Shown: piece by piece, positions 2,709 to 60,544 of the stretch
How the letters are laid out: each line of letters starts with the position of its first letter
How positions within the stretch are numbered: the stretch's first letter is position 1
Assembly (NCBI GenBank): GCA_963716145.1
Contig: OY970292.1
Location: forward strand, 822,528-886,527
Direction: 5' to 3'
Length of the DNA: 64,000 nt
From: Candidatus Levyibacteriota bacterium
GTDB lineage: Bacteria; Patescibacteriota; Microgenomatia; Levybacterales; UBA12049
The notes under the pieces: model-generated
Told to the model about the DNA's origin: nothing
Database searches by the model: none
The model's input: only the letters and a program-made list of their open reading frames with translations
Program-made: the position numbers and the translations under genes

Positions 2709-2762
2709 CAGCTGTAGGCGCTACGGCAGGGTTTGCGGGTGTTTTTTTTGAAAAGGGTAGCT

Positions 2763-3440: not shown

Positions 3441-3443
3441 AAT

Positions 3444-4757: not shown

Positions 4758-4816
4758 CTCCTACAAAGTAGGTCAAACGGAATACGTTGCGAGGCTGACT
4801 TGTGAAAAGTTGAGGA

Positions 4817-5143: not shown

Positions 5144-5187
5144 ATATAAAGATTAACAAATAGAAAGATAGAAAAGCAAGGCTTTGG

Positions 5188-24894: not shown

Positions 24895-26081
24895 ATGGCA
24901 GACACAAAATTTAACAGAACTAAACCACACGTAAATATCGGAACAATCGGTCACGTTGATCACGGTAAGACCACCACTTCAGCTGCAATTGCAACTGTTC
25001 TCTCCAAAGAAGGCGGATGGCAAAAGCAATGAAGTACGAAGATATTGATAACGCCCCTGAAGAAAAAGCCCGCGGAGTCACCATTAATATTTCCCACCTA
25101 GAATACGAAACAGAAAAACGACACTATGCACATATCGACGCTCCAGGACACGCTGATTATATTAAAAACATGATCACAGGTGCAGCTCAAATGGACGGAG
25201 CAATTCTAGTTGTTTCAGCGCCAGACGGACCTATGCCACAAACCCGTGAGCACATTCTTCTTGCACAACAAGTCGGAGTTCCAGCAATCGTTGTTTTCCT
25301 TAACAAATGTGACATGGTTCAGGATGAAGAGCTTTTGGACTTCGTTGAAATGGAAGTCCGAGAGCTTCTTACAAAATACGAATATCCAGGCGATAAAACT
25401 CCAATTATCCGCGGATCAGCACTTAAAGCACTTGAAGGAGACGCAGAAGCAGAAAAAGCAATCTTAGAGCTTATGGAAACAGTTGATGAATATATCCCAA
25501 CTCCTGAGCGAGCACTGGACAAGCCATTCTTAATGCCTGTTGAGGACGTTTTCTCAATCAAAGGTCGTGGAACAGTTGTTACCGGAAGAATTGAGAGAGG
25601 AATAGTTAAAGTAAACGAAGCTGTTGAGATCGTCGGACTTGATAAGAACAAAGAATCAGTTGTAACCGGAGTTGAAATGTTCAAAAAACAGCTTGATGAT
25701 GGACAAGCAGGAGACAATGTTGGACTTCTTCTCAGAGGTCTTGAAAAAGACAGACGTTGAACGCGGCCAAGTTATTGCAAAACCAGGAACTATTACTCCT
25801 CACACAGAATTTGAAGCAGAAGCATATATCTTAACCAAAGAAGAAGGCGGACGACACACACCATTCTTTACAGGATACCGCCCACAATTTTATATCAGAA
25901 CAACTGATGTTACCGGAACAGCAACACTTCCAACAGGTGTTGAGATGGTTATGCCTGGAGACAAACAAAAATGACAGTAAAACTTATTGTGCCAGTTGCC
26001 CTTGAAGAAGGACTCCGATATGCAATCCGAGAAGGTGGAAAGACAGTCGGAGCAGGAGTAATTACCAAAATAATAAAATAA
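24895..26081 (+). CDS. tuf: translation elongation factor Tu; reading frame broken at at least three positions (about 25015, 25745, 25968), likely sequence errors
   Basis: [27 protein letters not shown]...; frame shifts after VLSKEGG (gga-tgg should be gga atg), before [10 protein letters not shown] and before [35 protein letters not shown]; all three pieces are canonical EF-Tu. Confidence 0.9.
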
Positions 26082-43779: not shown

Positions 43780-44970
43780 CTAGTGCCCCGGCTTAATTGA
43801 CATTGCAGCCCCAATAACTAAAGCCCCGGCAAGAGCTGCAAGAAGCGCGGCAAGGCCCAAAGGTGCACCTCCGACGATAGCACTGCCTTTGAGAGCCTTG
43901 AGAGTATTTGTTTTCCATCTTGCTCTTTCTTCAGCATCCATGCCTTTAGTCTGTTCCTCAAGCATTTTGTCAACAATACCGCTTAGATCGCCTTTACGGA
44001 CTGATTCCAATAAGGCTTGGGCTGCTTCTGAGTCAAACTCACCGTTTTGTATTTGGTCAAATAAGCCATCAAAAGGTGTTTCTCCTTTTGCTTCAGCTTC
44101 AGAAAATAGCTTATAGGCATTGCCCAAAACTGCTTGCTCAGCTTGTGCTGCTTCCAGCCTTTGTTGAGCTGTAGCATTATTGTTATCAATCTTTAATGTT
44201 GCTTCTAGATTCGCGATCTCGGCACTAAGCTTATCGGATTGTTGAGCAAACGCTTCTTTACTTCCGCCGAGAACCGTTACTGCTTCCTGAAAATCATCTT
44301 TTGTCAGGACAACTTTTCCATCCAAGTTTTCTAACAATTTTGTTGCTTGAGGTGAACGGGTTGTTTCGTCAGGAGAGATGGAGCTTATAAGAGATCTGAT
44401 ATCATCAGCTGTGGGGATGCGGTTCTTGGCAGCATTTTCTATCGCCGGATCAAGACTTTCATCCATATCCCGATTGCCCATACAAGCTTGGAATACCTGC
44501 TGACTGTCTTCGCCTACAAAAAGTTTTGCATATGTATTCAGCTCTGCCTGCATTTGAAGACCAAGGACCTCTTCTCTAGTATAGGCAAGTTTTAGGCGTG
44601 CATCGCCTTGTTCATCTTTACCTGCGCTATCCTCAAGCACCTCTCCATCCTTATCTTCAAAGTAACATAGCAGTTGACCATCAGGTGTAACACCTGCAAT
44701 ACCAGCTAAGCGGATTTCTCCTTCCGGAAATTCCTGGTCTTTGCCACCCCTATCTTGTCTTATGACTGCCGGCATCATTACGTCATGTCCATCGCCGGTT
44801 GCTTTGGGAAATTTTCTTGCAAATGGCTGATCGCCGTCATTCTCACCAGTAAGCAATGCGTGAGATATGGCAAGCGCAGATTCCTCAGCAGTTTTTGCGG
44901 ATTTAATCTCCCCTTTATCACCGATTAGCCTTTTGCGGTGTTCTGACATAAGAATCGACTTAACCAACAT
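43780..44970 (-). CDS. hypothetical tail-anchored protein (acidic, Ala/Glu/Gln-rich coiled-coil, C-terminal TM); may extend upstream to 45262 across poly-T/A indels
   Basis: 396 aa; C-terminus GSAIVGGAPLGLAALLAALAGALVIGAAMSI; upstream ORF 45056..45262 (MSAPGTAATETPGMNADELAAAKSFDAKKKGPKLKKKEKAKRKK) in another frame through T9/T10 runs; G+C visibly higher than flanks. Confidence 0.5.
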   Translation of the reverse strand: MLVKSILMSEHRKRLIGDKGEIKSAKTAEESALAISHALLTGENDGDQPFARKFPKATGDGHDVMMPAVIRQDRGGKDQEFPEGEIRLAGIAGVTPDGQLLCYFEDKDGEVLEDSAGKDEQGDARLKLAYTREEVLGLQMQAELNTYAKLFVGEDSQQVFQACMGNRDMDESLDPAIENAAKNRIPTADDIRSLISSISPDETTRSPQATKLLENLDGKVVLTKDDFQEAVTVLGGSKEAFAQQSDKLSAEIANLEATLKIDNNNATAQQRLEAAQAEQAVLGNAYKLFSEAEAKGETPFDGLFDQIQNGEFDSEAAQALLESVRKGDLSGIVDKMLEEQTKGMDAEERARWKTNTLKALKGSAIVGGAPLGLAALLAALAGALVIGAAMSIKPGH

Positions 44971-45316
44971 GGCTGCTTCTGTACCTCTTCTTTCAGCTGT
45001 CCTAGGAGTTCTTTCAGCTGTCTCCTCTTCTGTATCGCTGTAGCCTGCGCCTCTGTCAAGGTAGCAGCGGTTGCTGGATCTGGGGAGGGGGCATCTGCAG
45101 GTCTGCTAGCATCACTCCTAGTAGGTGGCCCTTTTTTCTTTTCGCCTTTTCCTTTTTTTTCAGTTTTGGGCCTTTTTTTTTGGCATCAAAGCTTTTGGCT
45201 GCAGCCAATTCGTCTGCGTTCATACCGGGTGTTTCTGTTGCTGCTGTTCCTGGTGCTGACATATTACTACTATCATAGTTGAAACTTTACCACCGATCAA
45301 GTATGATTTTAAGTAT

Positions 45317-48300
45317 ATGCTTGCAATGGAAAGCGGAGATAGTGGTGGCGGAAAATTGGGGCGGGCCACCGAACGGGCCAAAACTGCCATCAAATCAAAG
45401 TTTAGTAATAAATCTGATGCAGCTCCAAGTGATGCTCCAAAGCACCCGGCTCTTAATACAATTAAAGAGAGAATATCTCCTTTTTTACTCAGGGAGCAAA
45501 CAGGAACAGGTGAAACAACTCTTGATTGGCAGGGACGGGAAGTGCAAATTAAAGAGCGGACCGGCTCTATTGATCCCGAATTGGTCACTGATTTTTCTAA
45601 AAGCCTGAAAGGCGACCTGGAAAGATTGATGGATATTCAGCAAAATACACCGGACGTCTTTGATAGATTGATTAACGACCCGCATTTTCGCCCGTATAGA
45701 GATCTTTTTGATAAATATACAAGGCTTAAAGAAGGCTCAGCTGCGGTAGGCGGGCACGCGATCAGGGAATTTGATTCAACATCGTTTGATGACTACATGG
45801 GGACTGATGCTGGATTCGCGACTGCTTTTGAAATGCGGAAATTAAAACTTCAGGATATGGCAACCAACGCCGCGGTGTTTCTTGATGACAATCTTCCCAC
45901 GACAAATCCTGAGGAAATTGAAGAACAGGATGTCAATACAGGACCGGGAGGTAAGGCTAGGGAAATAGGTAGAAAGGTTGGGCATTTTTTTCAAGAACCG
46001 CGTACCAGATACGGACGAAAAATACCTATAGATTTGGGTATTACGACTCTGGACTCAAAAGGAGATATAGCAGCGGTCATAACTGCTGCAAGTACTTTCC
46101 TTGGGGGGTTGGGAGCACTGGGTGGCGGTCCCGTAGGAGGATTGATTGGAGCTGGTATTCCACCGGCTGTTGTGGGGGTAATACACGCCTTTCATAGGGG
46201 GGAGAGGGTTACTGTTGAGCAAGCAAGAGCCGCTTTACGTATTGCCCGAGCAACGGATCCTGTAAGACGGGAATGGGCCCGTGAGATGTATAACGTAGAC
46301 TCAAGCAATCTTGGAATTGATAACAACGGAAATGTAGTTATACGCCCAGGTATCAGAAATAACAGGCAGCTTGCCAGTCCGGCAAAACAGAGTGAGGTTT
46401 TGCGCGATATTTTGGTTCGGGAAAATGCACAAATCATGAAAGCTCAGGAAGCGATGGGTATACGCCGGGAACAACGCGGTGGAATGGATTTGGTGGGATT
46501 GACTCGCCCCGGGCGGAATGAGCAATTTGCCCAACGCGATATACCTATTGAGATAAGTGTACAGCGCGAATTTAAGCGGGACCCTAGGTTAGTTGATAGA
46601 AATGGTAACACCTGCCAATTTCAAAATGCACAAGGTGAGTGGGTGGATAACGCCAATTTTAATTGGCGGAATACAAACCGATTAGCAGCATGGGATCTGC
46701 GTCAAGAAATTCACAGAAGGCTCCTTTCAGAAAAGATAACAGGAGACTTTAATGATATTGCTGAATGGGGCAAAAATCACAATACGGATTTAGGCAGCGC
46801 AATCACAAAAGCAAAAGAGCGCGGACCATTGATACTTACGGAAAGAAAAGCGGCATTAAATGAGCAAGACCGGAATCTTACCGAGGATCAGCGTCGCTTA
46901 AGAGCAGAAATTCCGCCTTTTACAGAGCTGGATACTGTCTTAACTCAAGTAGCTGCTGCCAGAAGAGCTGCTGAACAGGCAAGGAGAAATGTTACACGGG
47001 TAACCGCTCACCCAACTGGATTAACTGATGAATTATCGCTTTTAACTCAAGTATTAAATGATGTTCCAGCAGGCGGAGCTGCTCCGTTTGAACTGGATGT
47101 TATGCATGAGGGGGTTCGCCTACGCATTACCAGTATTGCCGGAAGAGAAGCTGAAGCATTGAGGACTTACCAGAACGCAGTTAATACAATTTCCGGATCT
47201 GTGCCTACAGGAAAAGGAGCTGACCAAATTATCACTGCAAGACTAAAAATTGCTAAGGATATTTACGATCAGCAGATGATTCCAATTAATAGAGACAAAA
47301 CAGCTGTCACCGCAGCCCGGCAGGCCATAGATGCTGCAAATACCGCAGCGCGTGAAGTATTTAATAGGTTTAATACTCTTGATGCGCAAAGAGAAGCTAC
47401 AGCAACTACATCAACAGAGATGCAGACCGCAAGAACAACTATCGAAGGATGGACCACTCCCGGAGTTGCTGATTTAAGTACAGCAGAGTTACAAAATCAA
47501 TCTTTCGATGAGCTCTTGACCCGCATAAATGCGGTAAATGCAGGGGGTGGGGGTGGCTGGCCGGAAGCTGAGAATGATACTCCTGAGAACAGAGAACGTC
47601 TGGTACGTGCGATGGCTGAAGCAAGAGCTATAGCATTAGAGCCACGCGTGGCGACACCAAGCGCCAATTTCGAGGATGCGATTAATCCCAATGGTTTTGC
47701 ATTGCTCGAAACAGATTTGTTGACAAGATCATCTGAGGATATAAGAAATATAATGGCTGATTTGATTGCAAGGGCTCCAGCTGGATCACCTCTTAACGGT
47801 TTGGTCATTCCTGCGAATGCAATAGATCAAATAAATGAGATCAAAAATGAAGCACAAGCCCGCTTTACAGCCCGCTTAAGAGCCATGCAGGCACTTGACA
47901 GAGAGATTACCAGCAGAAAAACGATAATCGAAGGCCAGAAAACGCGTATTGATAGAGAGGGTATTCAAACTCCCGAACTTGATGCTATAGAGAGAGCATA
48001 TCCGCTGGTAGATGATATCAGGAGCACTATTGATGCTATGACTGTTGTACCGCGGCTTGTTGAGTTCCTTGATACAGCGCAGGCAGCCACCCAAGCCCGT
48101 TATTTACCTGAGGAGCAAGCAAATAACCATTCAATAGCCTATGCCAATATAATGGAGTTGATTTTTAATCACCGCGATGATAATGATGCGAAGGTCGGTA
48201 CAGTAACCGGTAGGGCAGTTGCTTTTGAAAGAAACAGTAATTTCCTGACAGAAGATGTGCTCCGAGATCTGCTGGTACAGCAGTTTAATTTAGTAGGTCC

Positions 48301-48472
48301 TCCTCTTCCAGCTGGAGTCGTTGGTCCGCCAGCCACTCCGACATTTGAGCAGGCAATAGATCAATTGCGTAACGAAATCCAAGCCGGAAACATACCAAAA
48401 GGGCAGTTCGCGCAATTCCTGACAGAAAACGTCATATATGGATATATGGAACCGCTTGTACCGGTGTTATAA
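45317..48472 (+). CDS. giant hypothetical protein (1051 aa), Ala/Arg/Gly/Thr-rich, mostly helical with one Gly-rich hydrophobic segment
   Basis: no recognisable catalytic motif; GLGALGGGPVGGLIGAGIPPAVVGVIHAF at about 270-300; codon and amino-acid usage unlike host genes (sampled G+C about 50-58 percent). Confidence 0.6.
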   Translation: MLAMESGDSGGGKLGRATERAKTAIKSKFSNKSDAAPSDAPKHPALNTIKERISPFLLREQTGTGETTLDWQGREVQIKERTGSIDPELVTDFSKSLKGDLERLMDIQQNTPDVFDRLINDPHFRPYRDLFDKYTRLKEGSAAVGGHAIREFDSTSFDDYMGTDAGFATAFEMRKLKLQDMATNAAVFLDDNLPTTNPEEIEEQDVNTGPGGKAREIGRKVGHFFQEPRTRYGRKIPIDLGITTLDSKGDIAAVITAASTFLGGLGALGGGPVGGLIGAGIPPAVVGVIHAFHRGERVTVEQARAALRIARATDPVRREWAREMYNVDSSNLGIDNNGNVVIRPGIRNNRQLASPAKQSEVLRDILVRENAQIMKAQEAMGIRREQRGGMDLVGLTRPGRNEQFAQRDIPIEISVQREFKRDPRLVDRNGNTCQFQNAQGEWVDNANFNWRNTNRLAAWDLRQEIHRRLLSEKITGDFNDIAEWGKNHNTDLGSAITKAKERGPLILTERKAALNEQDRNLTEDQRRLRAEIPPFTELDTVLTQVAAARRAAEQARRNVTRVTAHPTGLTDELSLLTQVLNDVPAGGAAPFELDVMHEGVRLRITSIAGREAEALRTYQNAVNTISGSVPTGKGADQIITARLKIAKDIYDQQMIPINRDKTAVTAARQAIDAANTAAREVFNRFNTLDAQREATATTSTEMQTARTTIEGWTTPGVADLSTAELQNQSFDELLTRINAVNAGGGGGWPEAENDTPENRERLVRAMAEARAIALEPRVATPSANFEDAINPNGFALLETDLLTRSSEDIRNIMADLIARAPAGSPLNGLVIPANAIDQINEIKNEAQARFTARLRAMQALDREITSRKTIIEGQKTRIDREGIQTPELDAIERAYPLVDDIRSTIDAMTVVPRLVEFLDTAQAATQARYLPEEQANNHSIAYANIMELIFNHRDDNDAKVGTVTGRAVAFERNSNFLTEDVLRDLLVQQFNLVGPPLPAGVVGPPATPTFEQAIDQLRNEIQAGNIPKGQFAQFLTENVIYGYMEPLVPVL

Positions 48473-48478
48473 TAAATT

Positions 48479-48832
48479 ATGAACGCATTAGATATTATCA
48501 AGGCATTACCAATCGATGAGGTAGTAAAGACCAAAATCTTGAATAATTATGATTCTTTTACTGTGGCTCAGAAATCCGCAACCGATCATCTAGCATGGAC
48601 CACCTATGACGCTTTATATGAGGAGAGGCTTAGGAAAAATTTGGGAGTCCAGTATGATAACGTAGAACAAGGAGGAGAGAAATTTGGCAACGACTTTTAT
48701 AAAAGAGCACTTAAAAAAACGGAACGTGAAATGACAACTGAATTTAAGGAATCTGTTTCCAAGCATGATCTTTCTGCTGCGAGGAAGGCAATGGAAATAA
48801 TTGTTCGGGAAATTCAAGTCGCAAAAAAATAA
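48479..48832 (+). CDS. hypothetical protein (117 aa), operon partner of the giant protein
   Basis: starts 7 nt after the stop of 45317..48472. Confidence 0.4.
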   Translation: MNALDIIKALPIDEVVKTKILNNYDSFTVAQKSATDHLAWTTYDALYEERLRKNLGVQYDNVEQGGEKFGNDFYKRALKKTEREMTTEFKESVSKHDLSAARKAMEIIVREIQVAKK

Positions 48833-48850: not shown

Positions 48851-49618
48851 CTACTGGTCCTCAATTCTTCCAATCTCTCTTACTTCTCTGATAGTTTCCT
48901 CGGGCTTGAGTTTGGTTGTATCGATGTTCTCACCTCTATAGAGGAGTAACATACCTTCAATGATTTCCTTGGCCTTTAGGGCATCAGCACGCCAGAGATG
49001 AGATACAAAGACCTTTTTAACCTTGAGCGGATGCGGTCCGTAATCAATGATCAGCTTTGCCATAAAAAGTGCTGTGTGAACCCGCACATCCATAATCTCT
49101 TTAAGCATAATGCTTGTCATGGCTTCCGTAGCAAAGAAACTCTTCAGGGTTATATCCACTTTGTTGGCGTCAATTGTCACGGTGTCGGGGAAAAAGTCAA
49201 AAGGAAAAACAGTTTTGGCTCTGAAAAGTATTTTATCAGCCCGCGATACGAGTATATCGAGCTCTTTTTTAGCTTGCTGTGAATCATCAGTTTCATTGGG
49301 TTCATTTTGTTGGTCACTTTCAGATTTACCGCTATCAGCTTTCTTCTGCTTTTTCTTTGATCCGCCGTCCATACCGCTTCTTTCAGAAGGTGTCATATAG
49401 GGATCTTCAGCTAGCATCTCGGCTCTTTTTGCAAGAGTCTCATCGCTTCGTTTCTCTTTGTAGCCTTTTTTAGTACCATTACCAGATTTTTTATCGGGAG
49501 GGCTGGGAGATTTTCTCCGAGCAGGTTGTTGTCGGCGTTTTGCGCCGTTTTGAAAAATTGGTGCTGCTGCCTCATCAAAAAGTATATTATTATCATTCAT
49601 GACTCCTAAGTATAGCAA
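48851..49618 (-). CDS. hypothetical protein with basic disordered N-terminus and conserved-looking C-terminal domain
   Basis: 255 aa; Lys/Ser-rich N-terminal 120 aa. Confidence 0.45.
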   Translation of the reverse strand: MLYLGVMNDNNILFDEAAAPIFQNGAKRRQQPARRKSPSPPDKKSGNGTKKGYKEKRSDETLAKRAEMLAEDPYMTPSERSGMDGGSKKKQKKADSGKSESDQQNEPNETDDSQQAKKELDILVSRADKILFRAKTVFPFDFFPDTVTIDANKVDITLKSFFATEAMTSIMLKEIMDVRVHTALFMAKLIIDYGPHPLKVKKVFVSHLWRADALKAKEIIEGMLLLYRGENIDTTKLKPEETIREVREIGRIEDQ

Positions 49619-50535: not shown

Positions 50536-50982
50536 TTAACTGCCAAAAGTAGGTATTTTTAGGCTACGAATATCCCCTAGGCCAAATGCGCTTAGGACAA
50601 TTTGTACTATGAAGTAAGCAACAAAGGCGACAATGAGACCCACAATGGCTGCAACGATATGCTTTCTCGCTTCATCAACTTTTCCTTTGTCTCCACCGGA
50701 GGTTATCCATCTGATTCCACCATAAACTAGGTAAAAAAGAGCGATGATAACTGCCGCGATCAGAAGAAATGTTAATACAGTGCCTATGATGCCACCTGCT
50801 TTATCTGCTTTGAAGTTGTCGCAGAGTTTGAAAAAAGTTGAACTCCGAGGGCAGGGATCAAGATCTGTCTCTGCAAACGCAGGAAGAGCTGAGTAGGCGA
50901 AAGCACTAAGTCCTAATAATATTGCTGAAACCTTTTTCATAAGTACATATCTATGATAGAACAATGTTTTTCTGCTTGTCAA
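50536..50982 (-). CDS. VirB2/TrbC-like two-TM pilin-like protein (paralog 2)
   Basis: 148 aa; signal-like N-terminus; YGGIRWITSGGDKGKVDEARKHIVAAIVGLIVAFVAYFIV. Confidence 0.45.
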   Translation of the reverse strand: MTSRKTLFYHRYVLMKKVSAILLGLSAFAYSALPAFAETDLDPCPRSSTFFKLCDNFKADKAGGIIGTVLTFLLIAAVIIALFYLVYGGIRWITSGGDKGKVDEARKHIVAAIVGLIVAFVAYFIVQIVLSAFGLGDIRSLKIPTFGS

Positions 50983-50997
50983 TATAGCAAAATATAA

Positions 50998-51321
50998 TTA
51001 AGCAAAATTTAGAAGGTTTACCTTGAAGAAATAGCCAATAAGGCTAACAATGAAAAACGCAGCAAACGCGACAACAAGCCCAATTATTGCCCAGGTCAAT
51101 TTTGCACGAGCTGCTTGAAGCTTTGTTTTATCTCCGCCTGATAGAATCCATTGTATGCCGGCAACTACTATAAATATAAGCGCCAAAGCTACGCAGATTA
51201 TGATCATGATGATAAAGCTATTGCGGAAAACCTTACTTACTGTACCAATGCCTCCGGTTGGGATACCAGGAGGGGCAGAGATTGTTTGTCCGCCGGGAAG
51301 AGTTAATGCCAAATAGTTCAT
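50998..51321 (-). CDS. VirB2/TrbC-like two-TM pilin-like protein (paralog 3)
   Basis: 107 aa; AGIQWILSGGDKTKLQAARAKLTWAIIGLVVAFAAFFIV. Confidence 0.45.
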   Translation of the reverse strand: MNYLALTLPGGQTISAPPGIPTGGIGTVSKVFRNSFIIMIIICVALALIFIVVAGIQWILSGGDKTKLQAARAKLTWAIIGLVVAFAAFFIVSLIGYFFKVNLLNFA

Positions 51322-51495: not shown

Positions 51496-52929
51496 GTGGA
51501 GCAAGTTCATTTTGAATCGCTTTATCCTGATACAGCCTGGTCCTCAGAAATTGAAAAACTGGGAAGTTTTATAAAAGACGGTACATCCTGTCAATTATTG
51601 AGTATACCTGGTGCCGGAAGATCAACTATTTTGGGTCTTTTGGCGCATAACAGCAAAATACGTATAAAGCATTTCGGTAAGAATCAGGCTGCAATCCATT
51701 TTGTAGCTGTTAATTTTTCAGAGATTAAAAAACGTCCGCTTTTTGACGTGATGAAGTTTTTGTTTCTGTCTCTTGCCGACTCTCTTCGGGCGCGCAAAAT
51801 GGAGGAATATGAGAAGATTAATGATCTGTTCAAAGAATCTTTGGGATTTAATGATGAGCTTGTGCTTTTTCAGGCTCTAAAAGAAGCTATTGATTATCTT
51901 GCTCTTGAAAGAAAATTTAAGATTGTTTTTTTGTTTGATCGATTTGAGGAATATGTGCCCAAAGTAACCAGCGAGTTTTTTACCAATCTCAGAACTCTTA
52001 GGAATCGTGCCAAATATCAATTTTCAGTGATTTTTTCTCTCAACAGACCGCTTGAGGAGCTCTTGGAACAGGATCAGCTTTTCGACTTTTATGAATTTAT
52101 CGCAGGACATTACGTTTACTCAGGCCTATCTGATAAAGTCACAACAGATTTCCGCGTTGCATATATAGAAAAAATTACAGGAAAAAAAATTCTGCCAAAA
52201 ATACTTACCGGTATTCTAGAAGAGACAGGGGGAGTGGGAAGACTTATCAAGTTATCAGTTGAGACAGTCCTGGCGAATAATAAATTCGAAGCACGAAGCA
52301 CGAAATCCGAGACAAATATAAATAACAAAAATCCAAATACGAAAAATGTTTCGAGTTTCGACCTGCCTGCCGGCAAGGCAGGTATTCGGATTTCGGATTT
52401 GGGTTTGGGGGAATATCTTTTTTCACAAAAACCAATCCAAAGTGCTCTAATGGAGATTTGCCGCTCGCTTTTACCAGTTGAGCAGGCGGCACTTATTAAT
52501 AACAAATTTGATGACCCGCAAGCAGAAAGTTATCTTGAGACTGTTGCAATAATTAAAGCTAGGAAAATACAAATTCCTCTTTTTGAGAAACATATTAAAT
52601 CGCACGTTGGGAAATTTCAGCAAGATGCCAAAAAAATTGTATATGATCAAAACACAAACGCTATAAAAATGAACGAGGTTGTCTTATCTGATCAGCTGAC
52701 TTCGTCTGAGTTTAGACTGCTGAAATTTCTTCTGCAAAATCCTGACAGAATTGTTGATAGAGACGCGCTGATTGGCGTTGTATGGTCAAGCGTAAAATCA
52801 ACCGCCGGTATAACCGATCAGGCAGTTGACCAACTGGTTTTTAGAGTAAGACGGAAAATAGAAGACGACCCTAATAATCCCGTTCACCTGCTTACTGTTA
52901 AAGGGCGGGGATTTCGATTCGTTTCCTAA
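51496..52929 (+). CDS. regulator: N-terminal P-loop-like ATPase (Walker A Lys replaced by Arg) fused to C-terminal OmpR/PhoB-type winged-helix DNA-binding domain
   Basis: 477 aa; LSIPGAGRSTILGLL; IVFLFDRFEE (Walker B-like); C-terminal ...LTSSEFRLLKFLLQNPDRIVDRDALIGVVW...DQLVFRVRRKIEDDP...LLTVKGRGFRFVS matches the trans_reg_C pattern. Confidence 0.6.
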   Translation: MEQVHFESLYPDTAWSSEIEKLGSFIKDGTSCQLLSIPGAGRSTILGLLAHNSKIRIKHFGKNQAAIHFVAVNFSEIKKRPLFDVMKFLFLSLADSLRARKMEEYEKINDLFKESLGFNDELVLFQALKEAIDYLALERKFKIVFLFDRFEEYVPKVTSEFFTNLRTLRNRAKYQFSVIFSLNRPLEELLEQDQLFDFYEFIAGHYVYSGLSDKVTTDFRVAYIEKITGKKILPKILTGILEETGGVGRLIKLSVETVLANNKFEARSTKSETNINNKNPNTKNVSSFDLPAGKAGIRISDLGLGEYLFSQKPIQSALMEICRSLLPVEQAALINNKFDDPQAESYLETVAIIKARKIQIPLFEKHIKSHVGKFQQDAKKIVYDQNTNAIKMNEVVLSDQLTSSEFRLLKFLLQNPDRIVDRDALIGVVWSSVKSTAGITDQAVDQLVFRVRRKIEDDPNNPVHLLTVKGRGFRFVS

Positions 52930-52994: not shown

Positions 52995-55900
52995 ATGATA
53001 GAGCAAAAATTGACAGCCAGAGAGGCTTCCCGATATGATAGAAGAGGAGCAAAATATATGTCAGAAACAGGAGCAGCCGTATTGGAAAGATCGGAAGAAT
53101 CAGATGAAGAAAAACTGTATAAAAAATGGGAGCCTTTTTTGGCGCAAGCTACCAAGCCCGAAGAACGCGCCCACATACTTGATCTTATAACTCAACGTAG
53201 AGAACCACCCTCAGAAGATCCAAGTGAATTAACGCAGGCCAGATTGAGAGAAATGTCCCAGGATGAGGTTGATAAGAAATTTGCCGCCATGATCAAAAAG
53301 CCTGAGATTAACAGGCCTGAAGATTTAAAGGGGCTTGACAAGATACTGGATAAGTACCAGGAGCAGGCAAAGGGCGCAGACGGTCTATTGGGAGATGAGT
53401 CGGTAGCACCAGGGGAAGTCTTGCGGGATAAGGACAGCTGGGCAGAGTATGGATGGAGCGATACTGAGAAAATCAGAGTTGCTGGTGACCTAAAGACCAC
53501 CCTTGCGAGCTTAAAGCTTACCGATAAACAGGTAGATACTATGATGGAAATTTTTCTTTCCGAAGGTAAATTGCCTGAACATTTAACAAAAGGAAAAATA
53601 GAAGAGATATCAGCCAACATATGGGATGAATGGGAGAAAGACCCAAATATCAGACATGATTATAAAAATGAATTCGATATATTTGTAATGCAGAAGTTGG
53701 GAATTACGGAAAAGCAAATAAAGCATTTTATTTTGACTGATAAATTTGAACAGGATAATGATATGTATGTTGATTATAATTCTCCACGAAATATTGAGGC
53801 CCTTGCCTGGCAGATCATGCACACCCCCGGTAAAGGATACGCAGGGTGGGGTATTAAGGGCGAGCGTCCGCTTCTTGAGATGCGGATAGTAAAGAATGCT
53901 GATGGAACTGTTGACACAGACAAGAGCCGTTACCGTGTAAATACAGCAAATATGGTTGCTTGGGCACGTTACAGCATGTATACCGCCTATGATCTTGACC
54001 GTGAAACTCCTCACAATTTTTTTCAGGAAATTGCTTTAAAGAAAAGATACCCGCTTTCTCTTCAAGAGATGCTTCTTAATCCTGATCAGTATTTTGTTTC
54101 GGAAGACGGAGAGACAAAATATAAACAAATGCTGCTGGAGTGGTATAAGGAAGCGGCTGTTTTTACAACTGTCAGGGGCTGGGATGTTGCTTACCGTGGA
54201 GTAATAGGAGATAGCGAGGAGCTGATGAAGGTTTTTAGGGAAATGTATAACACCCAAAATTTACTGACCAGAGGAGCTCTTGGTTCCAACATACTTAATC
54301 TTATGACAACTATGCCATTGGATTTTCAGGGGACAAAAGACGGTCAATGGAATAGCGATAGTAAGATGGGGGCCGGTTGGATTGATATCTATAGAGCTTA
54401 CGACAGCATGACTGATTTTGATAACCTGCAAAAGATACTTGGCAAGGGCTCAAAATTTTTTACCCGCGCAGGTTTCTCGGAGGCGATAAAAGAAGTGGAA
54501 AAAGGCAAGATTACAGCAACAGGTATAACTAAGTCAAGAGTGTTTATGGGTCGTAAGGAGCTTGAGTTTTTTAAAAATGCATTTGATGACAAGGGGGAGA
54601 TTTCATCTGAGGCGAATAAGGTAAATTTTATAAAACTTATTAATATTTTCGGAACCAAGCAGCCTGGAGCCGGAGTTGAGTTTGCAGTGCGTTTTGCACT
54701 GCGCAATGCTATTGCTGAAAAATACGGGGAGGAAGTGTACGTTAAAAATGCAAAGGGTGAAATCATGAAGGATGAAAATGGAAAAAAGATAAAAACGCAT
54801 GCTTTTGTTACTACACAAGGGGAGAAAAAAGGCGACGAGATAGAAAACAGGATAGCAGATAATGAAAGTCTATATATAGCTGAGGCAATTGCCTGGTCGC
54901 TGGCCAGACCATTTGGCGCGGCCGCCAAAAATGATCCTGATTCCATAGCGCATGACTATATGGCCAAAATTTATAATACCCAGCTGCTGCGTGAGAAATA
55001 TCCTCATCGCGGAGACAAACTTGGTAATGAGCTGACAATGAATTTAATCAAGCGGACAGGTGTTGATATTCTTAACGCTGTAGTAACAGAAGCCCAGACA
55101 CCCGAGCTGGATTCAGAGGGAAAAGTAATTTATAAAACAAAAGACGATAGGGCAAACAACCGCCCGGTAATGCGTGACAAAACTCCAATGGAACTCTTTG
55201 TTGAGCTGTCTGAGTTCAGGACAATAGCAGCTAGTGAGATACGGTTAATGAGAGATAAGCTTATGGGAATGACCAGGGGAACAGAGGAATGGAAAAGGCA
55301 AAAGGATTTGGTAGATGCCTACGAACAGCAATCAGAGCAAAAATACCAGAATATAGCTTCCCAAATATCTATCAGACAAAGAGTGCTTTCGAACTATTAT
55401 GAAGATCATTTGAGGTATGCCTCTGACATATTTAAGCAGGTTATGAACGCGGATGAAATAGGATTTGATAAATTCACCGATTACAATGTCTTCGGAGGTG
55501 TGCGGTTCAAGCAGGCGGAATTTCAGAAAGAGGTGCAGGATACCTGGATTCATAAGATCCGTTACATGCTCGATACTTATTCGAGTCTTAACTTTAATCA
55601 GACTGTGCGTGTTTTGGATCAGAAAGAGACATCAAGACGGCATTGGGACGATCATCGTGAGTCTGAACCTGCTTTTCATGATGTTCCGCTGGGTGAGGCG
55701 CTTTTCGGGCACGAAATGCTCAATATACCAAAATTCTGGAAAAGAGACGATAAAGGGAGGCCGATAAATTTGAGAGATAATAAAGGCCGGAAGATGAAGG
55801 GACTCTACGAAATTGATTATTTGAAAGTACAGGAGAACAAACAGGATGTCTGGAAGCAATGGTTTATGATCAAAGTTGCCGCGGATTTACGCTCGCACAA

Positions 55901-56210
55901 AATGCTACACGGTAATGATGTCAGATATAATTTCACATATTATCAAAATGTTATTGAGTCACTGGGAAGAATACCGGGGAATATTTTGCAGGATGAATAT
56001 AAGATGAAGGATACAGTAGTAAACGAGCGTTTTTTCACAAAAGCCAATATTGCATGGCTGCGTGAAAAAGCAGGCGTAACGAATTTTAACCTTTATATGG
56101 GAGCAATACTTAAAGATCTGATTTTGGAAGAGGATAAGCCTGAGGAGGGAATAGGACTGCTTCTTGCCTTAAGTCTCGCGATGAAAGCAATTGTACGGGA
56201 TAAAGTTTAG
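52995..56210 (+). CDS. giant hypothetical soluble protein (1071 aa), Lys/Glu/Asp/Trp/Tyr-rich
   Basis: single uninterrupted ORF, no signal peptide or TM, no recognisable motif. Confidence 0.6.
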   Translation: MIEQKLTAREASRYDRRGAKYMSETGAAVLERSEESDEEKLYKKWEPFLAQATKPEERAHILDLITQRREPPSEDPSELTQARLREMSQDEVDKKFAAMIKKPEINRPEDLKGLDKILDKYQEQAKGADGLLGDESVAPGEVLRDKDSWAEYGWSDTEKIRVAGDLKTTLASLKLTDKQVDTMMEIFLSEGKLPEHLTKGKIEEISANIWDEWEKDPNIRHDYKNEFDIFVMQKLGITEKQIKHFILTDKFEQDNDMYVDYNSPRNIEALAWQIMHTPGKGYAGWGIKGERPLLEMRIVKNADGTVDTDKSRYRVNTANMVAWARYSMYTAYDLDRETPHNFFQEIALKKRYPLSLQEMLLNPDQYFVSEDGETKYKQMLLEWYKEAAVFTTVRGWDVAYRGVIGDSEELMKVFREMYNTQNLLTRGALGSNILNLMTTMPLDFQGTKDGQWNSDSKMGAGWIDIYRAYDSMTDFDNLQKILGKGSKFFTRAGFSEAIKEVEKGKITATGITKSRVFMGRKELEFFKNAFDDKGEISSEANKVNFIKLINIFGTKQPGAGVEFAVRFALRNAIAEKYGEEVYVKNAKGEIMKDENGKKIKTHAFVTTQGEKKGDEIENRIADNESLYIAEAIAWSLARPFGAAAKNDPDSIAHDYMAKIYNTQLLREKYPHRGDKLGNELTMNLIKRTGVDILNAVVTEAQTPELDSEGKVIYKTKDDRANNRPVMRDKTPMELFVELSEFRTIAASEIRLMRDKLMGMTRGTEEWKRQKDLVDAYEQQSEQKYQNIASQISIRQRVLSNYYEDHLRYASDIFKQVMNADEIGFDKFTDYNVFGGVRFKQAEFQKEVQDTWIHKIRYMLDTYSSLNFNQTVRVLDQKETSRRHWDDHRESEPAFHDVPLGEALFGHEMLNIPKFWKRDDKGRPINLRDNKGRKMKGLYEIDYLKVQENKQDVWKQWFMIKVAADLRSHKMLHGNDVRYNFTYYQNVIESLGRIPGNILQDEYKMKDTVVNERFFTKANIAWLREKAGVTNFNLYMGAILKDLILEEDKPEEGIGLLLALSLAMKAIVRDKV

Positions 56211-56215
56211 AGATG

Positions 56216-58084
56216 CTATGATTTGGGTTTTGCGCCATTTTTATTTCTTCGTCTTTGCCTAAAGGGTACTCTTTCACCTCTTTCTTTCCGAATTGCTTCC
56301 CTTTCCGCCTCAATGGTTTTTTCGAATCCGCCCTCCCCATGTACTGTTCCTTGTCTCTCAATAAGTCTTCTTGATGCCAGACCTCTCTCAGCCATAGAAC
56401 CGAGAATAGGCACGCGGGATCCGGCTCCGATTATCTTTTCACCGGTTTTACGTTTCAAAACAGCAAGAGCTCCCTTGTCACCGCTTCTCGCGTCATATCT
56501 ATTTAGATGCTTCATTGCACGCCCCACCGGTGCGCCAACTACCGCAGCTCCAGCGGCAATTCCAGCTCCAACAATTCCCGGAGTGCCGATATTTTTGACA
56601 CCCATTTTCTCACGTAGAATGGTCTGGATAGTCGGGGCAATCAGAAGCACTCCAAATGCCATAAGCGCTCCGAAATTGGTGCTTGATGGATTTCCCACAA
56701 GGGGAGGTACGAATTGATTGGGAGATGCCGTACTATATATATCCAAAAGCAAACGCGCGGCAATTAAAAGAAACACTGTTAGAGGAAAAATGGCAATATT
56801 GACAAAAAGCCTTCTGATCCAGCTTTCAAAACCCATAGGTTTGGTTGGAAGCAGCCCAAAAACAATAATAATAGGCGCCAATATTACATAGGCCAGAGTA
56901 TAGATATATGCTTTAAGGAGATTAAACCAGATTTTGAATAGATTTATAACCAAAATTACGAAAATGATAATTTGCGCGACAGCGCTGACGAGAACAGCAA
57001 GGAAATTGGCAACGCCTTTTTTGGCGCATTTTATGGGATGATACCACTTGCATTTTGTTTCCAGATCATTTTCATCAAACATCAAACTTCTTGCTACATT
57101 GCCGATAGTGTTTCCCGCGCTGTCGGCAACTGATTTGGTCATGACATGAAATCCGCCGTCGCGATCATTACCTTCACCAATAGATAAAAATCCTGTTTCC
57201 TCGCTGCACCTGGCAAAAATTTGATTAAAATAAGTAATAGGAGTCTGAAGAATTGTGCTGGTTGCTTTTTCTGAAAGCTTTTCCGGCCCGGCAGTTTTAT
57301 CTGTACAGTTGCCTACATCCGGGTCATGAGTGGCAGTAAGTAAGTAGGATCCTGCATAAGTAGTCACCCACATCAGGTCAATAAGCATAGCCGAAATCGC
57401 GTAAGAGAGAGTAATAAGTATTATCGAAACTATTACTTTGGGAATTTGATTCTGAATAGTCATGACTGTCCTGGGGTCAATTTTTATCCTTAGCATGATA
57501 CCAACGCCAATAAATACAAACGCAAGAGTCAGAAGAACATAGGCGATATTGCGCACAGTTTCCCAGAGTCCGATAATCGGCTGGAGGCCGCACAATCCGT
57601 AGCCTGATTTAGCAGGATCACAAGGCGCTACCGCGGCATAAGCTTTGGGGACAATGCCGAATTTATCTGAGATATACCGCGTATACGTTCCTGTTGATGC
57701 AATCGGCTGATAGGTTGAGGTGATCAGACCGGTTGAAATACCCACAAGTCCCCCAATTTCCGGCTTGCCATACTCATCGAGTACAGGTTTACTCATCCCT
57801 AGTCTTTTGGTCTCAGGATTGATGCCAAGACAGCCTTGAGTCGGGTTGATCGGATCAACCCCGATTAGTAGACAATGTATAGCTGATAAAACTTCAATTG
57901 TTGTTGACTGGGCAAAAGTGTGTTGATTGAGGGGAACATCCGGATCCATATTTGGAGCCGCGAAAGAATTGGTTGTCGTAGTAGCCGAAGTGGGGGATAT
58001 TTGAGCAAATGAGGGCTTGGAAGCCATAAATAACAACCCAACAATAACAAATAACAAACAGAATAAAACGCGGACAGAGCGCAT
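56216..58084 (-). CDS. VirB6/TrbL-like polytopic membrane protein with signal peptide and long basic C-terminal tail
   Basis: 622 aa; MRSVRVLFCLLFVIVGLLFMASKPSFA signal; about 8 TM helices in the middle; hydrophilic Arg/Lys/Gly-rich C-terminal 110 aa. Confidence 0.4.
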   Translation of the reverse strand: MRSVRVLFCLLFVIVGLLFMASKPSFAQISPTSATTTTNSFAAPNMDPDVPLNQHTFAQSTTIEVLSAIHCLLIGVDPINPTQGCLGINPETKRLGMSKPVLDEYGKPEIGGLVGISTGLITSTYQPIASTGTYTRYISDKFGIVPKAYAAVAPCDPAKSGYGLCGLQPIIGLWETVRNIAYVLLTLAFVFIGVGIMLRIKIDPRTVMTIQNQIPKVIVSIILITLSYAISAMLIDLMWVTTYAGSYLLTATHDPDVGNCTDKTAGPEKLSEKATSTILQTPITYFNQIFARCSEETGFLSIGEGNDRDGGFHVMTKSVADSAGNTIGNVARSLMFDENDLETKCKWYHPIKCAKKGVANFLAVLVSAVAQIIIFVILVINLFKIWFNLLKAYIYTLAYVILAPIIIVFGLLPTKPMGFESWIRRLFVNIAIFPLTVFLLIAARLLLDIYSTASPNQFVPPLVGNPSSTNFGALMAFGVLLIAPTIQTILREKMGVKNIGTPGIVGAGIAAGAAVVGAPVGRAMKHLNRYDARSGDKGALAVLKRKTGEKIIGAGSRVPILGSMAERGLASRRLIERQGTVHGEGGFEKTIEAEREAIRKERGERVPFRQRRRNKNGAKPKS

Positions 58085-58150
58085 AGCTATTTTAGTTTGA
58101 GGTATTTTGAATGGGTTGTCAAGTTCTGCAAAGCAGAATTTTAAGCCTTG

Positions 58151-58235
58151 CGGAGAGGACGGGACTCGAACCCGTAATCCCGTTTCCGGGACACGCGCTT
58201 TCCAAGCGCGCCGACTACCATTATCACACCTCTCC
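58151..58235 (-). tRNA. tRNA-Ser (anticodon GGA), type II with long variable arm
   Basis: acceptor GGAGAGG/CCTCTCC, anticodon arm CGCGC-TTGGAAA-GCGCG, variable hairpin CCCGGAAACGGG, T-arm ACGGG-TTCGAGT-CCCGT, discriminator G. Confidence 0.85.
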
Positions 58236-58459
58236 TTTTTTTAATCTAAATTTCTTCTAAAATATTTTCTCCCACGCGCACTCTTGTCCGCCTCTGGCGG
58301 AAGACCACCCCGCCAAAGGCGGGCAGGTATGCGACCCTTCCATTTCAAAACTATTATATAAGGTAAATGTCAAGCGATTTAGCTCGAAATTTCCTATACT
58401 TGTCTGGTAATTATACCTGATTAGTTTCATATTTGCATAAAAGGGAGGGAGGATATAAA

Positions 58460-59314
58460 ATGACAGAGAACGATTATATTATGGACCCATTACCACCAGA
58501 TAGACCGGGATCTAGACCAGGAGATCCCCGAGCGCCACGTGAAGCCGGGCCTCCGATAGTACCTAGGCCTACCCAAGATCCGAAAGAGGCAGCAGATCAT
58601 CCTCTTGGTCCAGCTATTCCCTCACCGTCCAGAAAGGAAGGTGTAGGTGATGAAACCGTGGAGGCCTGGACAAAAGGCGCAACCTCGCGCAGCAGAATGA
58701 GTCCATCAGAAACTGTCGAGAAAGTATTGCCCGCACGTGGACTGGATTTGCCAACTGGCGAAAGAGGACAAGAAGATGCTGCCCGCGACTTGGAACTAAC
58801 GACGAGGGTAGTAAATGAAAACATTAGTATTCCTGAGATGGCTGCTATTGCTAATGAATTTGGAATTCCAAGGAATATGGTGTCGCACGAATTTGCGCAG
58901 ATGGGTGTTAAGCCGGAGAAAATCGAGGAACTTATGCAGCATCAGCATCTGCTGCTGCCCGAATTAACAGAGGCCGAAAAAGTAAACGTCTCTGATCCTG
59001 TCACCGAAGAGGTAATACAAGCCGGAAAGACAAACGCAGAAAAGGAATTGGAAGCTGGAATTTTTGAAGATGTAAAGAAAAGGTTTGAGACCGAAGCTGA
59101 ACCTCAGGAGGGTGACTTAGAAAAGATAGCCACAGTAAGAAAGGGATTTAATAAGTTTTTATTTGACGAGAATGAGGGTATTTTAAGAAGAGAGGGACGA
59201 AAAGCAAGACTTTTTGGAAAACCGCTGGTGGTTGGATTAATGGCCACATTTCTTGCCTATCTTTCGCTTTTGAGTCTTATGACAAAGTGGGCGGCCAAAA
59301 GAGTAGGAAGTTAG
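58460..59314 (+). CDS. hypothetical tail-anchored protein, Pro/Arg/Glu-rich N-terminus, C-terminal TM
   Basis: ATG 58460 after gggagggagg; C-terminus GKPLVVGLMATFLAYLSLLSLM; G+C higher than host. Confidence 0.45.
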   Translation: MTENDYIMDPLPPDRPGSRPGDPRAPREAGPPIVPRPTQDPKEAADHPLGPAIPSPSRKEGVGDETVEAWTKGATSRSRMSPSETVEKVLPARGLDLPTGERGQEDAARDLELTTRVVNENISIPEMAAIANEFGIPRNMVSHEFAQMGVKPEKIEELMQHQHLLLPELTEAEKVNVSDPVTEEVIQAGKTNAEKELEAGIFEDVKKRFETEAEPQEGDLEKIATVRKGFNKFLFDENEGILRREGRKARLFGKPLVVGLMATFLAYLSLLSLMTKWAAKRVGS

Positions 59315-59386
59315 TGTCCCCGGCGGGAATCGAACCCACAACTGAAGCTTCGGAAGCTCCTGTTTTATCCGTTAGACTACGAGGAC
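59315..59386 (-). tRNA. tRNA-Arg (anticodon CCG)
   Basis: acceptor GTCCTCG/CGGGGAC (one G-U), anticodon arm GGAGC-TTCCGAA-GCTTC, T-arm GTGGG-TTCGATT-CCCGC, discriminator A. Confidence 0.75.
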
Positions 59387-59503
59387 TCTTCTGCTCCGGC
59401 TGCGTAAATTGCTCTGCAACATTTTCAGGCGAAACGTAAGAAATTTCTCAAGAAATTTCAACGTTTCTGCAACGTTGAAATCGCAAAGCGATTTCTTACG
59501 TTG

Positions 59504-59587
59504 CGGAGGGTACAGGATTCGAACCTGTGTAGGGATTACTCCCTCGAGTTTTCGAAACTCGTGCAATTGCCACTATGCGAACCCTCC
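59504..59587 (-). tRNA. tRNA-Ser (anticodon CGA), type II
   Basis: acceptor GGAGGGT/ACCCTCC, anticodon arm CGAGT-TTCGAAA-ACTCG, variable hairpin AGGGAGTAATCCCT, T-arm ACAGG-TTCGAAT-CCTGT, discriminator G. Confidence 0.85.
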
Positions 59588-59692
59588 TTGTTCGCCAGTT
59601 GGCGAACACAATGAACTAAGAACAAAGAACTTAGAAAACTTTCTATTCTTGGTTTTAAGTTCTTAGTCCTTAGTATTCTGCTTTGCAGAATG

Positions 59693-59766
59693 TGTTCCCG
59701 AGTGGATTCGAACCACCGGCCTTAACGTCCGCAACGTTACGCTCTATCCAGCTGAGCTACGGGAAC
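59693..59766 (-). tRNA. tRNA-Arg (anticodon GCG)
   Basis: acceptor GTTCCCG/CGGGAAC perfect, D-arm GCTC-AGCTGGATA-GAGC, anticodon arm TAACG-TTGCGGA-CGTTA, T-loop TTCGAAT, discriminator A. Confidence 0.8.
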
Positions 59767-59816
59767 ATGTGTGTATTTTACCTAATATGGTCTAGGCTTG
59801 CAATTAAAATGAAATT

Positions 59817-60392
59817 TTACCGGCTTGTCTTTTCAAGAGGAAAGTTTTTTGAGAGCCAATCTCCTGATTTTTCCGTAAAAGTGGGCTTAACATATTCACG
59901 GTAAGGAAGGTACGGTAGAAGAATTGGTTTTATCTCCTCAGCCGTAATATCTCCAAGTGAAATCTTTAATTCTCCGGGAAAATAACTCTTGGTAGTCAAA
60001 TACAATACATCTTTATCATGATGTTTTATAAAGAAAAAATCATACAATTCTTCCCAGATAAAAAAATAATCTTCAACCCGTATGCCCTCCGTCGTAATTT
60101 TGTAGTAAAAATCATGAGGTGGGACAATTGATAAAGCAAACCACAGAAAAACCAATGAGAATATAGCACCCATTAAAAAAAAGTCTTTAGATGCAATATA
60201 AACTATGATTTCAAGTGCTGCCATTATCAGGAATCCGTTGAAAAAATACTCACGTGAGTGTTCTTTGAAAGGCCTACCGGGGGCGTGCCATTCTAAAAAA
60301 GTTCTGACATCATGTGTAAAGGCCGGGTTTTGTTCTCTTTCTTCTGGTTTTGGCTTATGTTTTGGGGTAGTCACACTTTTAATGTAACTCAT
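59817..60392 (-). CDS. membrane protein with two TM helices and a bacterial PH (bPH_2/DUF304)-like C-terminal domain
   Basis: start moved to ATG 60392 (MSYIKSV...) because the track ORF (to 60542) would overlap tRNA-Ser(TGA). Confidence 0.4.
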   Translation of the reverse strand: MSYIKSVTTPKHKPKPEEREQNPAFTHDVRTFLEWHAPGRPFKEHSREYFFNGFLIMAALEIIVYIASKDFFLMGAIFSLVFLWFALSIVPPHDFYYKITTEGIRVEDYFFIWEELYDFFFIKHHDKDVLYLTTKSYFPGELKISLGDITAEEIKPILLPYLPYREYVKPTFTEKSGDWLSKNFPLEKTSR

Positions 60393-60435
60393 TTTCAAGA
60401 CAAAAGTCAAGAAATTTGCTATACTTGAGCCTCCT

Positions 60436-60522
60436 GGAGAGGTCGCATAGTGGTCTAGTGCGGATGTCTTGAAAACATCTGTGGGCGCAAGTCTACCGCG
60501 AGTTCGAATCTCGCCCTCTCCG
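60436..60522 (+). tRNA. tRNA-Ser (anticodon TGA), type II
   Basis: acceptor GGAGAGG/CCTCTCC, anticodon arm GATGT-CTTGAAA-ACATC, long variable arm, T-arm GCGAG-TTCGAAT-CTCGC, discriminator G. Confidence 0.85.
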
Positions 60523-60544
60523 CAACGTAAGAAATCTACCAAAT

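Follow-up and report, generated by a model that had tools for sequence, protein, structure and literature searches.

The window analysed here is a stretch of 64,000 nt from a Candidatus Levyibacteriota bacterium (assembly GCA_963716145.1, contig OY970292.1, positions 822,528 to 886,527), with a G+C content of about 40%. It contains a gene for a protein of 1051 aa, here called the large protein, which is followed after 6 nt by the gene of a 117-aa partner; both open reading frames (ORFs) lie where a first-pass annotation of this DNA had placed them. Ahead of the pair, on the opposite strand, lies a third gene, whose product we call the upstream protein. Patescibacteria, which also go by the name Candidate Phyla Radiation (CPR), account for a large part of the diversity of bacteria and live in attachment to other microbes. 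As far as can be read from sequence, the large protein is the centre of a chromosomal three-gene membrane module that is conserved in Patescibacteria, in lineages of the Microgenomates group. The analysis established the protein family, its architecture, the gene trio, a conserved promoter layout and a recurrent neighbourhood of type IV secretion system (T4SS) genes.

The gene trio and its promoter region

The SecY-Adk-Cmk-Map-S13-S11-S4-RpoA-L17-L13-S9 operon stops 19 nt ahead of the module, and the neighbours of the module are ribosomal protein S9, a PD-(D/E)XK nuclease, T4SS pilins and a candidate regulator (Table 1).

Table 1 Features of the window, with positions counted from its first nucleotide
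Feature	Position	Strand	Description
Large protein gene	45317..48472	+	ATG start, 1051 aa
Gly/Ala/Pro-rich hydrophobic segment of the large protein	46067..46192	+	aa 251-292
Most conserved family motif	47525..47629	+	aa 737-771
Partner gene	48479..48832	+	117 aa, 6 nt past the large gene
Divergent upstream gene	43780..45262	-	intact ORF 43780-44970, 396 aa; conserved start ATG at 45262
Homopolymer-rich tract	44925..45262	-	runs A9, A8, A6 and C5; encodes a Lys-rich low-complexity stretch
Putative bidirectional promoter	45263..45316	.	54 nt separating both start codons; consensus scan
Predicted plus-strand promoter	45279..45307	+	TTGAAA-17-TATGAT; consensus scan
Predicted minus-strand promoter	45300..45272	-	TTGATC-17-TATGAT; consensus scan
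Imperfect inverted repeat	45260..45282 / 45297..45319		23 nt
Two VirB2-like T4SS pilin genes	50536..51321	-	148 and 107 aa; Pfam PF18895, E 8.5e-10 and 1.1e-8
Polytopic membrane protein, candidate VirB6-like	56216..58084	-	622 aa, at least 6 hydrophobic segments
T4SS core block	561..5143	-	identified with Pfam
VirB4-like ATPase of the block	561..2708	-	
TrsD-like protein of the block	2763..3440	-	
PrgI/VirB3-like protein of the block	3444..4757	-	carries a CarboxypepD_reg domain
Pilin of the block	4817..5143	-	
EF-Tu gene (tuf)	24895..26081	+	four overlapping ORF fragments: 24895-25032, 25017-25760, 25672-25974, 25971-26081
255-aa protein gene	48851..49618	-	convergent with the partner gene
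477-aa protein gene	51496..52929	+	C-terminal OmpR-type winged helix (Trans_reg_C), long uncharacterised N-terminal region
1071-aa protein gene	52995..56210	+	no hydrophobic segment
Five tRNA genes	58150..60523		Ser-GGA, Arg-CCG, Ser-CGA, Arg-GCG, Ser-TGA

Large gene and partner lie side by side in 18 independent loci (the window, L001-L004, L006, L008, L010-L017, L019, L022 and L024). A pattern scan of genome contigs with the large protein gave nothing, the partner scan of genome contigs gave four loci, and a metagenome scan with the partner gave seven, two of them duplicates of loci already in the set. The small co-transcribed gene reported by the first-pass annotation is real: it lies 1-27 nt behind the large gene in every locus with upstream sequence. 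The 6-nt gap in the window contains no promoter or terminator match, and translation of the partner is probably coupled to that of the large gene. It is a soluble, highly charged protein (33% K/R/D/E) of 115-126 aa across the family, with an isoelectric point (pI) of 7.9 here and a family range of 4.5-7.9. Pfam, NCBIfam, PHROGs and PDB yielded no relative of it, and it bears no similarity to known chaperones. Between the window and L010 or L015 the partner is the better conserved of the two, with 32-44% identity against 23-26% for the large protein.

In all ten loci whose upstream sequence is long enough, the divergent upstream gene occupies its position. Its product is acidic (pI ~4.7), lacks a signal peptide and ends in one C-terminal hydrophobic tail, which is clear in four of five inspected proteins (window, L001, L002, L008) and weaker in L004. 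Neither Pfam, NCBIfam nor PHROGs gave a match, and BLAST connects the protein of the window with those of L001, L004, L006, L013 and L015. The gene encodes 412-479 aa in L001, L002, L004, L008, L014, L015, L016 and L017; the open frame of L013 measures ~557-560 aa, and in L006 only a piece of 275 aa is present, cut by the contig end. The distance from start codon to start codon is 50-54 nt in nine loci, and from this spacing it follows that the gene of the window starts at 45262 and not at 44970. Its 5' 97 codons (44971-45262) are out of frame with the 396-aa ORF, and a single indel in the C5 run around 45087-45091 would suffice to give a continuous frame of ~493 aa. The frame break in the homopolymer-rich tract is either an assembly error or due to slippage. 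Since tuf is essential and yet fragmented in the window, the assembly apparently carries indel errors, and the frameshift in the upstream gene is thus probably an artefact. Any further frameshift in this DNA therefore calls for a careful reading.

We read the stretch that separates the two start codons as two interleaved sigma-70-type promoters that form a symmetric bidirectional unit. Its layout, CAT-~10-ATCATA-N-TTGAaa-~13-rATCAA-N-TAnnAT-~10-ATG, contains columns that do not vary among 11 loci, with the proteins on either side only ~20-60% identical. Both predicted -10 boxes end 9 nt ahead of their ATG, from which we infer near-leaderless transcription of both genes. A symmetric, apparently leaderless bidirectional promoter that is so unusually well conserved may also be of use as a regulatory marker for locating the module.

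The large-protein family

The large protein had been called an orphan, but an exhaustive HMMER profile search over 1.84 billion representatives gave 108 cluster representatives at E<=1e-3, of which 74 reach <=1e-10 and 27 reach <=1e-30; most of these proteins measure 900-1500 aa. A word-index search with the single protein or with a 40-sequence profile found only the protein itself and one homologue with 59% identity. The database entries of the family are named 'hypothetical protein' throughout (for example PIZ61619.1). We take the matches to be true relatives and not coiled-coil noise, because homology spans the whole length of the protein, because an uncharged hydrophobic 35-mer is shared and because a signal-peptide-like N-terminus is found in none of the 90 full-length matches. 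The 35-mer lies at residues 150-365 in 79 of these 90 proteins, and in 82 no other stretch of the chain is more hydrophobic. Each locus has one copy of the large gene. Labelled relatives of the module belong to Candidatus Levyibacteriota (Microgenomates group), to Candidatus Roizmanbacteria and to a metagenome-assembled genome (MAG) labelled Saccharimonadales. Two further MAGs with the module (L011 and L013), one of them a 1.3-Mb single contig of 41% G+C, are labelled 'uncultured Gammaproteobacteria'; these labels are doubtful, since the same patescibacterial T4SS genes are present.

The first-pass annotation had also proposed a horizontal origin, based on a strongly deviating G+C. The G+C of the ORF is 0.46, as compared to 0.396 +/- 0.035 for 27 genes of the window, and the genes for EF-G, the VirB4-like protein and others reach 0.45 as well. 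Its G+C at third codon positions (GC3) is native (0.360 vs 0.346 +/- 0.044). The excess is in codon position 1 (0.574) and thus reflects an amino-acid composition rich in Ala, Arg, Gly, Glu and Asp. Synteny extends over the entire neighbourhood in two further metagenomic genomes, L001 and L002, and the large protein shares 59% identity with its L001 orthologue, a divergence like that of the housekeeping proteins Adk, Cmk and L17 in this genome pair (58-60%). The large gene is inherited vertically with the chromosome. A horizontally acquired island or orphan gene was rejected in view of the native GC3, the synteny with L001 and L002 and the 108 representatives.

As to composition, the protein is rich in Ala (11.4%) and Arg (8.8%), as had been noted, but not in Gln (4.8%), which had been listed with them; Gly accounts for 7.3%. 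An AlphaFold2 (AF2) model built from a 62-sequence alignment reached a predicted local distance difference test score (pLDDT) of 84.3 and a predicted template-modelling score (pTM) of 0.59, whereas a model from two sequences was unusable (pLDDT 35.8). With 60% helix and 7% strand it bears out the view of a largely alpha-helical protein. In the model, residues 1-65 are disordered and followed by an N-terminal alpha/beta domain (aa ~66-245), the hydrophobic segment (aa 251-292), which is unpacked and has a pLDDT <50 over 256-284, a second alpha/beta domain (aa ~297-450), very long helices of up to 70 residues (aa 455-557 and 607-710) and a C-terminal helical domain (aa ~720-1050).

The hydrophobic segment at aa ~251-292 is the only one of the protein and includes the Gly-rich stretch quoted in the first-pass annotation (GLGALGGGPVGGLIGAGIPPAVVGVIHAF, aa 264-292). 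It has the features of a hairpin: a GGGP turn, a glycine-zipper pattern (G266-x3-G270-x3-G274-x3-G278) and two hydrophobic arms of ~20 residues. Each of the 58 aligned members with 25 or more residues at this position has an equivalent, with a median length of 47 aa and a G+A+P content of 49%. G266, G271, P272, G274, G278 and G295 are conserved at 86-95% across the family, and the flank upstream of the segment has more K/R (3.5) than D/E (1.7). We regard aa 251-292 as a putative membrane hairpin; a conserved Gly/Ala/Pro-rich hydrophobic hairpin between large helical regions agrees with the earlier impression of a membrane-active protein. The most conserved part of the family is the motif I-N-x8-G-W-P-x3-N-x5-R-x5-A-x2-E-A-R-A at aa 737-771. 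N738, G747 and W748 are at least 90% conserved in alignments A2 and A3; A765, E768 and A769 reach at least 90% in A2 and 88-92% in A3, and N753, R759, R770 and A771 are conserved at 82-90% in A3. C-terminal to the motif, R853 is 95% conserved.

Pfam, NCBIfam and PHROGs have no domain in the large protein, and no Pfam or NCBIfam family, ATPases and GTPases included, matches it or 40 of its relatives. Foldseek searches with the model gave no match below E 0.09 in PDB and a best E of 0.013, which is not significant, in BFVD. The sole sequence-level match in a PDB profile search was the SMC1A coiled coil (E 4.6e-5), the remainder being coiled-coil noise. An SMC-like ATPase was considered and rejected, and dynamin/mitofusin-like scaffolds likewise lack support: ATPase/GTPase matches were absent from the large protein and the 40 relatives, and the PDB matches concerned coiled-coil arms only. 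By sequence and by predicted whole-chain fold, the family has no characterised relative; resemblance in fold goes no further than helical hairpins.

Type IV secretion genes and the possible role of the module

The surroundings of 15 loci were searched with local hidden Markov models (HMMs) built from Pfam-identified T4SS genes. In nine of them, which represent at least six separate lineages, the large gene has T4SS genes no further than 10 kb away. The window, L001 and L002 have two pilins at 1.2-2.5 kb and a VirB6-like polytopic protein at 7-8 kb; the pilins of the window, of a type typical of CPR, lie 2.1-2.5 kb downstream of the pair, in an arrangement that is syntenic in L001 and L002. At L003, one pilin-like ORF follows the pair and is cut by the contig end. 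A VirB6-like protein of 561 aa is encoded 2.2 kb from the pair in L004 (Pfam TrbL/VirB6, E 8e-4, below the curated cut-off) and is a homologue of the 622-aa polytopic protein of the window. In L011, genes for PrgI-like, TrsD-like and VirB4-like proteins follow on the same strand from 60 nt past the partner, and L010 has the same-strand order PrgI - TrsD-like - VirB4 past an inserted AbiEii/IVP gene pair. The proteins of these two loci are orthologous (39-71% identity) to those encoded at 561-4757 of the window. Four pilin genes come directly past the partner in L012, and L015 unites VirB4, TraC-like, PrgI, FtsK, the trio and pilins in ~15.7 kb, with the pilin array directly past the pair. The association is recurrent but not universal.

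Patescibacterial T4SSs are described in PMC12102498 as chromosomal and MPF-FATA-like, with arrays of VirB2-like pilins; in Microgenomatia, according to the same paper, the T4SS genes are dispersed and homologues of VirB6 and VirB8 can scarcely be detected. For the Saccharibacterium Southlakia epibionticum, the sole species tested, the T4SS is essential, and PMC10633639, PMC11665869 and PMC12102498 give the function of this system and several subunits as unknown. Delivery of effectors by a patescibacterial T4SS is treated as speculation in PMC11665869.

We favour, tentatively and at somewhat less than an even chance, that the trio forms a membrane-anchored accessory platform of the patescibacterial T4SS. 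The compact symmetric promoter would co-express the acidic tailed protein leftwards and the large protein with its charged partner rightwards. The hairpin would insert the large protein, which has no signal peptide, into the cytoplasmic membrane of the producer itself, and the N-terminal domain and the ~760-aa helical, coiled-coil-rich C-terminal region would both face the cytoplasm. Such anchoring in the own membrane with cytoplasmic domains is suggested because a signal peptide is absent, the flank is rich in K/R and two arms of ~20 residues surround the GGGP turn. Large protein, upstream protein and partner may then assemble into an elongated platform that would serve a T4SS of VirB4, PrgI, TrsD and VirB2-like pilins, for which the usual accessory subunits cannot be recognised in these lineages. 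Membrane topology, complex formation and the T4SS role are what we infer for the trio, and functional statements on it draw on gene neighbourhood and on predicted structure.

A comparison with the accessory inner-membrane components of MPF-FATA T4SSs in Patescibacteria (PMC12102498; PMC10633639) is apt in that the module lies beside genes for VirB4-like, TrsD-like, PrgI/VirB3-like and VirB6-like proteins and VirB2-like pilins in many lineages and in that the large protein lacks a signal peptide. Like several large 'hypothetical' genes of the essential T4SS cluster of S. epibionticum, it is chromosomal and lineage-specific. Unlike the catalogued subunits, to none of which homology or a fold match was detectable, the trio has its own bidirectional promoter, is self-contained and can sit far from virB4, and its linkage to T4SS genes is not universal. 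Several observations weigh against a T4SS role. What speaks for it is, as far as sequences and models go, guilt by association, and searches of Pfam, NCBIfam and PDB revealed no similarity in sequence or fold between the large protein and any known T4SS component. T4SS genes were not seen in the available flanks of six of the 15 loci (L006, L008, L013, L014, L016 and L017), and the VirB4 block of the window is 40 kb away from the module. Large and upstream proteins (23-26% identity) diverge faster than VirB4 (68%), PrgI (39-44%) and the pilins (40-50%). The hydrophobicity of the segment is moderate (family mean Kyte-Doolittle 0.95), and its stable insertion into a membrane is not certain. Finally, the covered passages of a published survey of patescibacterial T4SS neighbourhoods (PMC12102498) do not mention the family. 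Neither these nor the covered passages of PMC10633639 and PMC11665869 describe it, and no trio is obvious in the table of the S. epibionticum T4SS cluster, judged from the table entries.

The module could instead be a membrane scaffold independent of the T4SS, with a lineage-specific cytoskeletal, cell-division or membrane-shaping function, and its proximity to T4SS genes a matter of envelope genes clustering in small genomes. The long coiled-coil architecture and the match to SMC1A would fit such a scaffold, as would the six loci without a T4SS gene in view. So would the ribosomal-protein operon that adjoins the module in the window, L001, L002 and L014, and other housekeeping genes elsewhere (NUDIX and ALAD in L004, Pth and glycosyltransferases in L008, ProRS and pentose-phosphate genes in L016). 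We nevertheless consider it unlikely: T4SS genes within 10 kb recur across at least six separate lineages, and the operon-like same-strand continuity with PrgI-TrsD-VirB4 in L010 and L011 is estimated to be far above what random genes would give in a ~1-Mb genome. Moreover, an ATPase/GTPase domain is lacking, as is a match to known division or cytoskeletal families. In contrast to SMC/Rad50-type and other long coiled-coil scaffolds, the large protein has neither ATPase heads nor a hinge, but a hydrophobic hairpin. A secreted, membrane-inserting effector, akin to the membrane-active effector of the first-pass annotation, stays a live rival, although we judge it unlikely as well. Here the partner would act as a chaperone that keeps the large protein soluble until it is exported, plausibly by the T4SS, and the glycine-zipper hairpin would insert into the membrane of the host bacterium to form a pore or a nutrient-uptake anchor. 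The T4SS neighbourhood, the tightly coupled small downstream gene and the speed at which the large protein diverges in comparison with the T4SS core are all compatible with such a translocator, and effector delivery has been speculated upon (PMC11665869). The layout is translocator-like too, with a hydrophobic hairpin between large soluble helical domains and no signal peptide. Weak similarities to IpaB, PaxB and colicins point the same way, but they are confined to generic helical hairpins. Compared with IpaB/SipB and its chaperone IpgC, with colicin Ia and with the alpha-pore-forming toxin PaxB, the large protein has double the size and additional alpha/beta domains. A type III secretion system, to which the IpaB/SipB-IpgC pair belongs, is not present, the partner has no tetratricopeptide-repeat (TPR) or chaperone signature and, given its pI range, is not consistently acidic, and the co-expressed upstream protein has no counterpart there. 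The single copy per locus, the full-length conservation across deep lineages and the strict co-expression with a C-terminally membrane-tailed protein rather suggest a resident membrane complex.

The origin preferred by the first-pass annotation, a phage tape-measure protein or the remnant of a prophage gained by horizontal transfer, has in our estimate practically no chance of being correct. In its length, its large proportion of helix and its Gly-rich hydrophobic stretch the large protein does resemble phage tail tape-measure proteins, a likeness that is not specific, and such proteins turn up among the non-significant BFVD matches (E 0.03-0.6). The template-modelling (TM) scores of these matches are <=0.10, however, and PHROGs has no match for the large protein or its neighbours. 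No relatives were found among the viral metagenomes of IMG/VR, the GenBank phages or the plasmids of PLSDB. Tail, capsid and terminase genes are not found near the locus, where the neighbours are ribosomal-protein, T4SS and housekeeping genes. Native GC3, conserved chromosomal synteny and an AF2 model with folded alpha/beta domains instead of a single extended helix set the protein apart from tape measures as well.

Returning to the T4SS platform, the module is a concrete candidate for a missing T4SS component or substrate, since it combines the lack of a known relative with a confident predicted structure, a putative hairpin and repeated T4SS linkage. It is tempting to go one step further and to see in the trio an unrecognised core part of the patescibacterial T4SS/pilus. 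This could be an inner-membrane platform that replaces the undetectable VirB8/coupling functions or, alternatively, a translocator with the 117-aa protein as chaperone and a host-inserted glycine-zipper hairpin. We consider this rather unlikely, but in either version it would offer a first way to learn what these epibionts do with their essential T4SS. Should the T4SS reading hold, the module would represent a new lineage-specific variant of a known machine; should the link be wrong, it would still be a membrane complex that is widespread and uncharacterised, in a lineage of which little is understood. Neither the trio nor its promoter nor the T4SS linkage appears to have been described so far.

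Other genes around the module

The 477-aa Trans_reg_C gene and the pilin pair are divergently oriented, and the gene has syntenic counterparts in L001 and L002, which makes it a candidate regulator of the pilins or the T4SS. The 1071-aa protein encoded next to it has no Pfam, NCBIfam or PHROGs match and is syntenic but unevenly diverged (60% identity in L002, 32% in L001). A paralogue of the 1051-aa family was considered for this neighbour and rejected, as it gave no match with the family HMM. The 255-aa protein encoded behind the partner has a low-complexity, Lys/Ser-rich N-terminus and no match in Pfam, NCBIfam or PHROGs; its C-terminal ~130 aa have counterparts with 53-61% identity in L001 and L002 only.

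In L010, the genes between partner and PrgI encode an AbiEii toxin and a 23S-rRNA-IVP (four-helix-bundle) protein (4280-5561), and an IVP gene is also present in the locus of L001 (17350-17715). These are small mobile or defence-type insertions in the T4SS neighbourhood. In L013 (6372-9545, minus strand) and L006 (4903-7029, minus strand), both without visible T4SS genes, a large transglutaminase-core protein is encoded after the partner and may be an alternative conserved neighbour of the module; L013 additionally has an AAA_5 (MoxR/dynein-like) ATPase after the partner. Rfam and tRNA scans gave nothing relevant to the module locus itself; the five tRNA genes of the window are located downstream of the VirB6-like gene.

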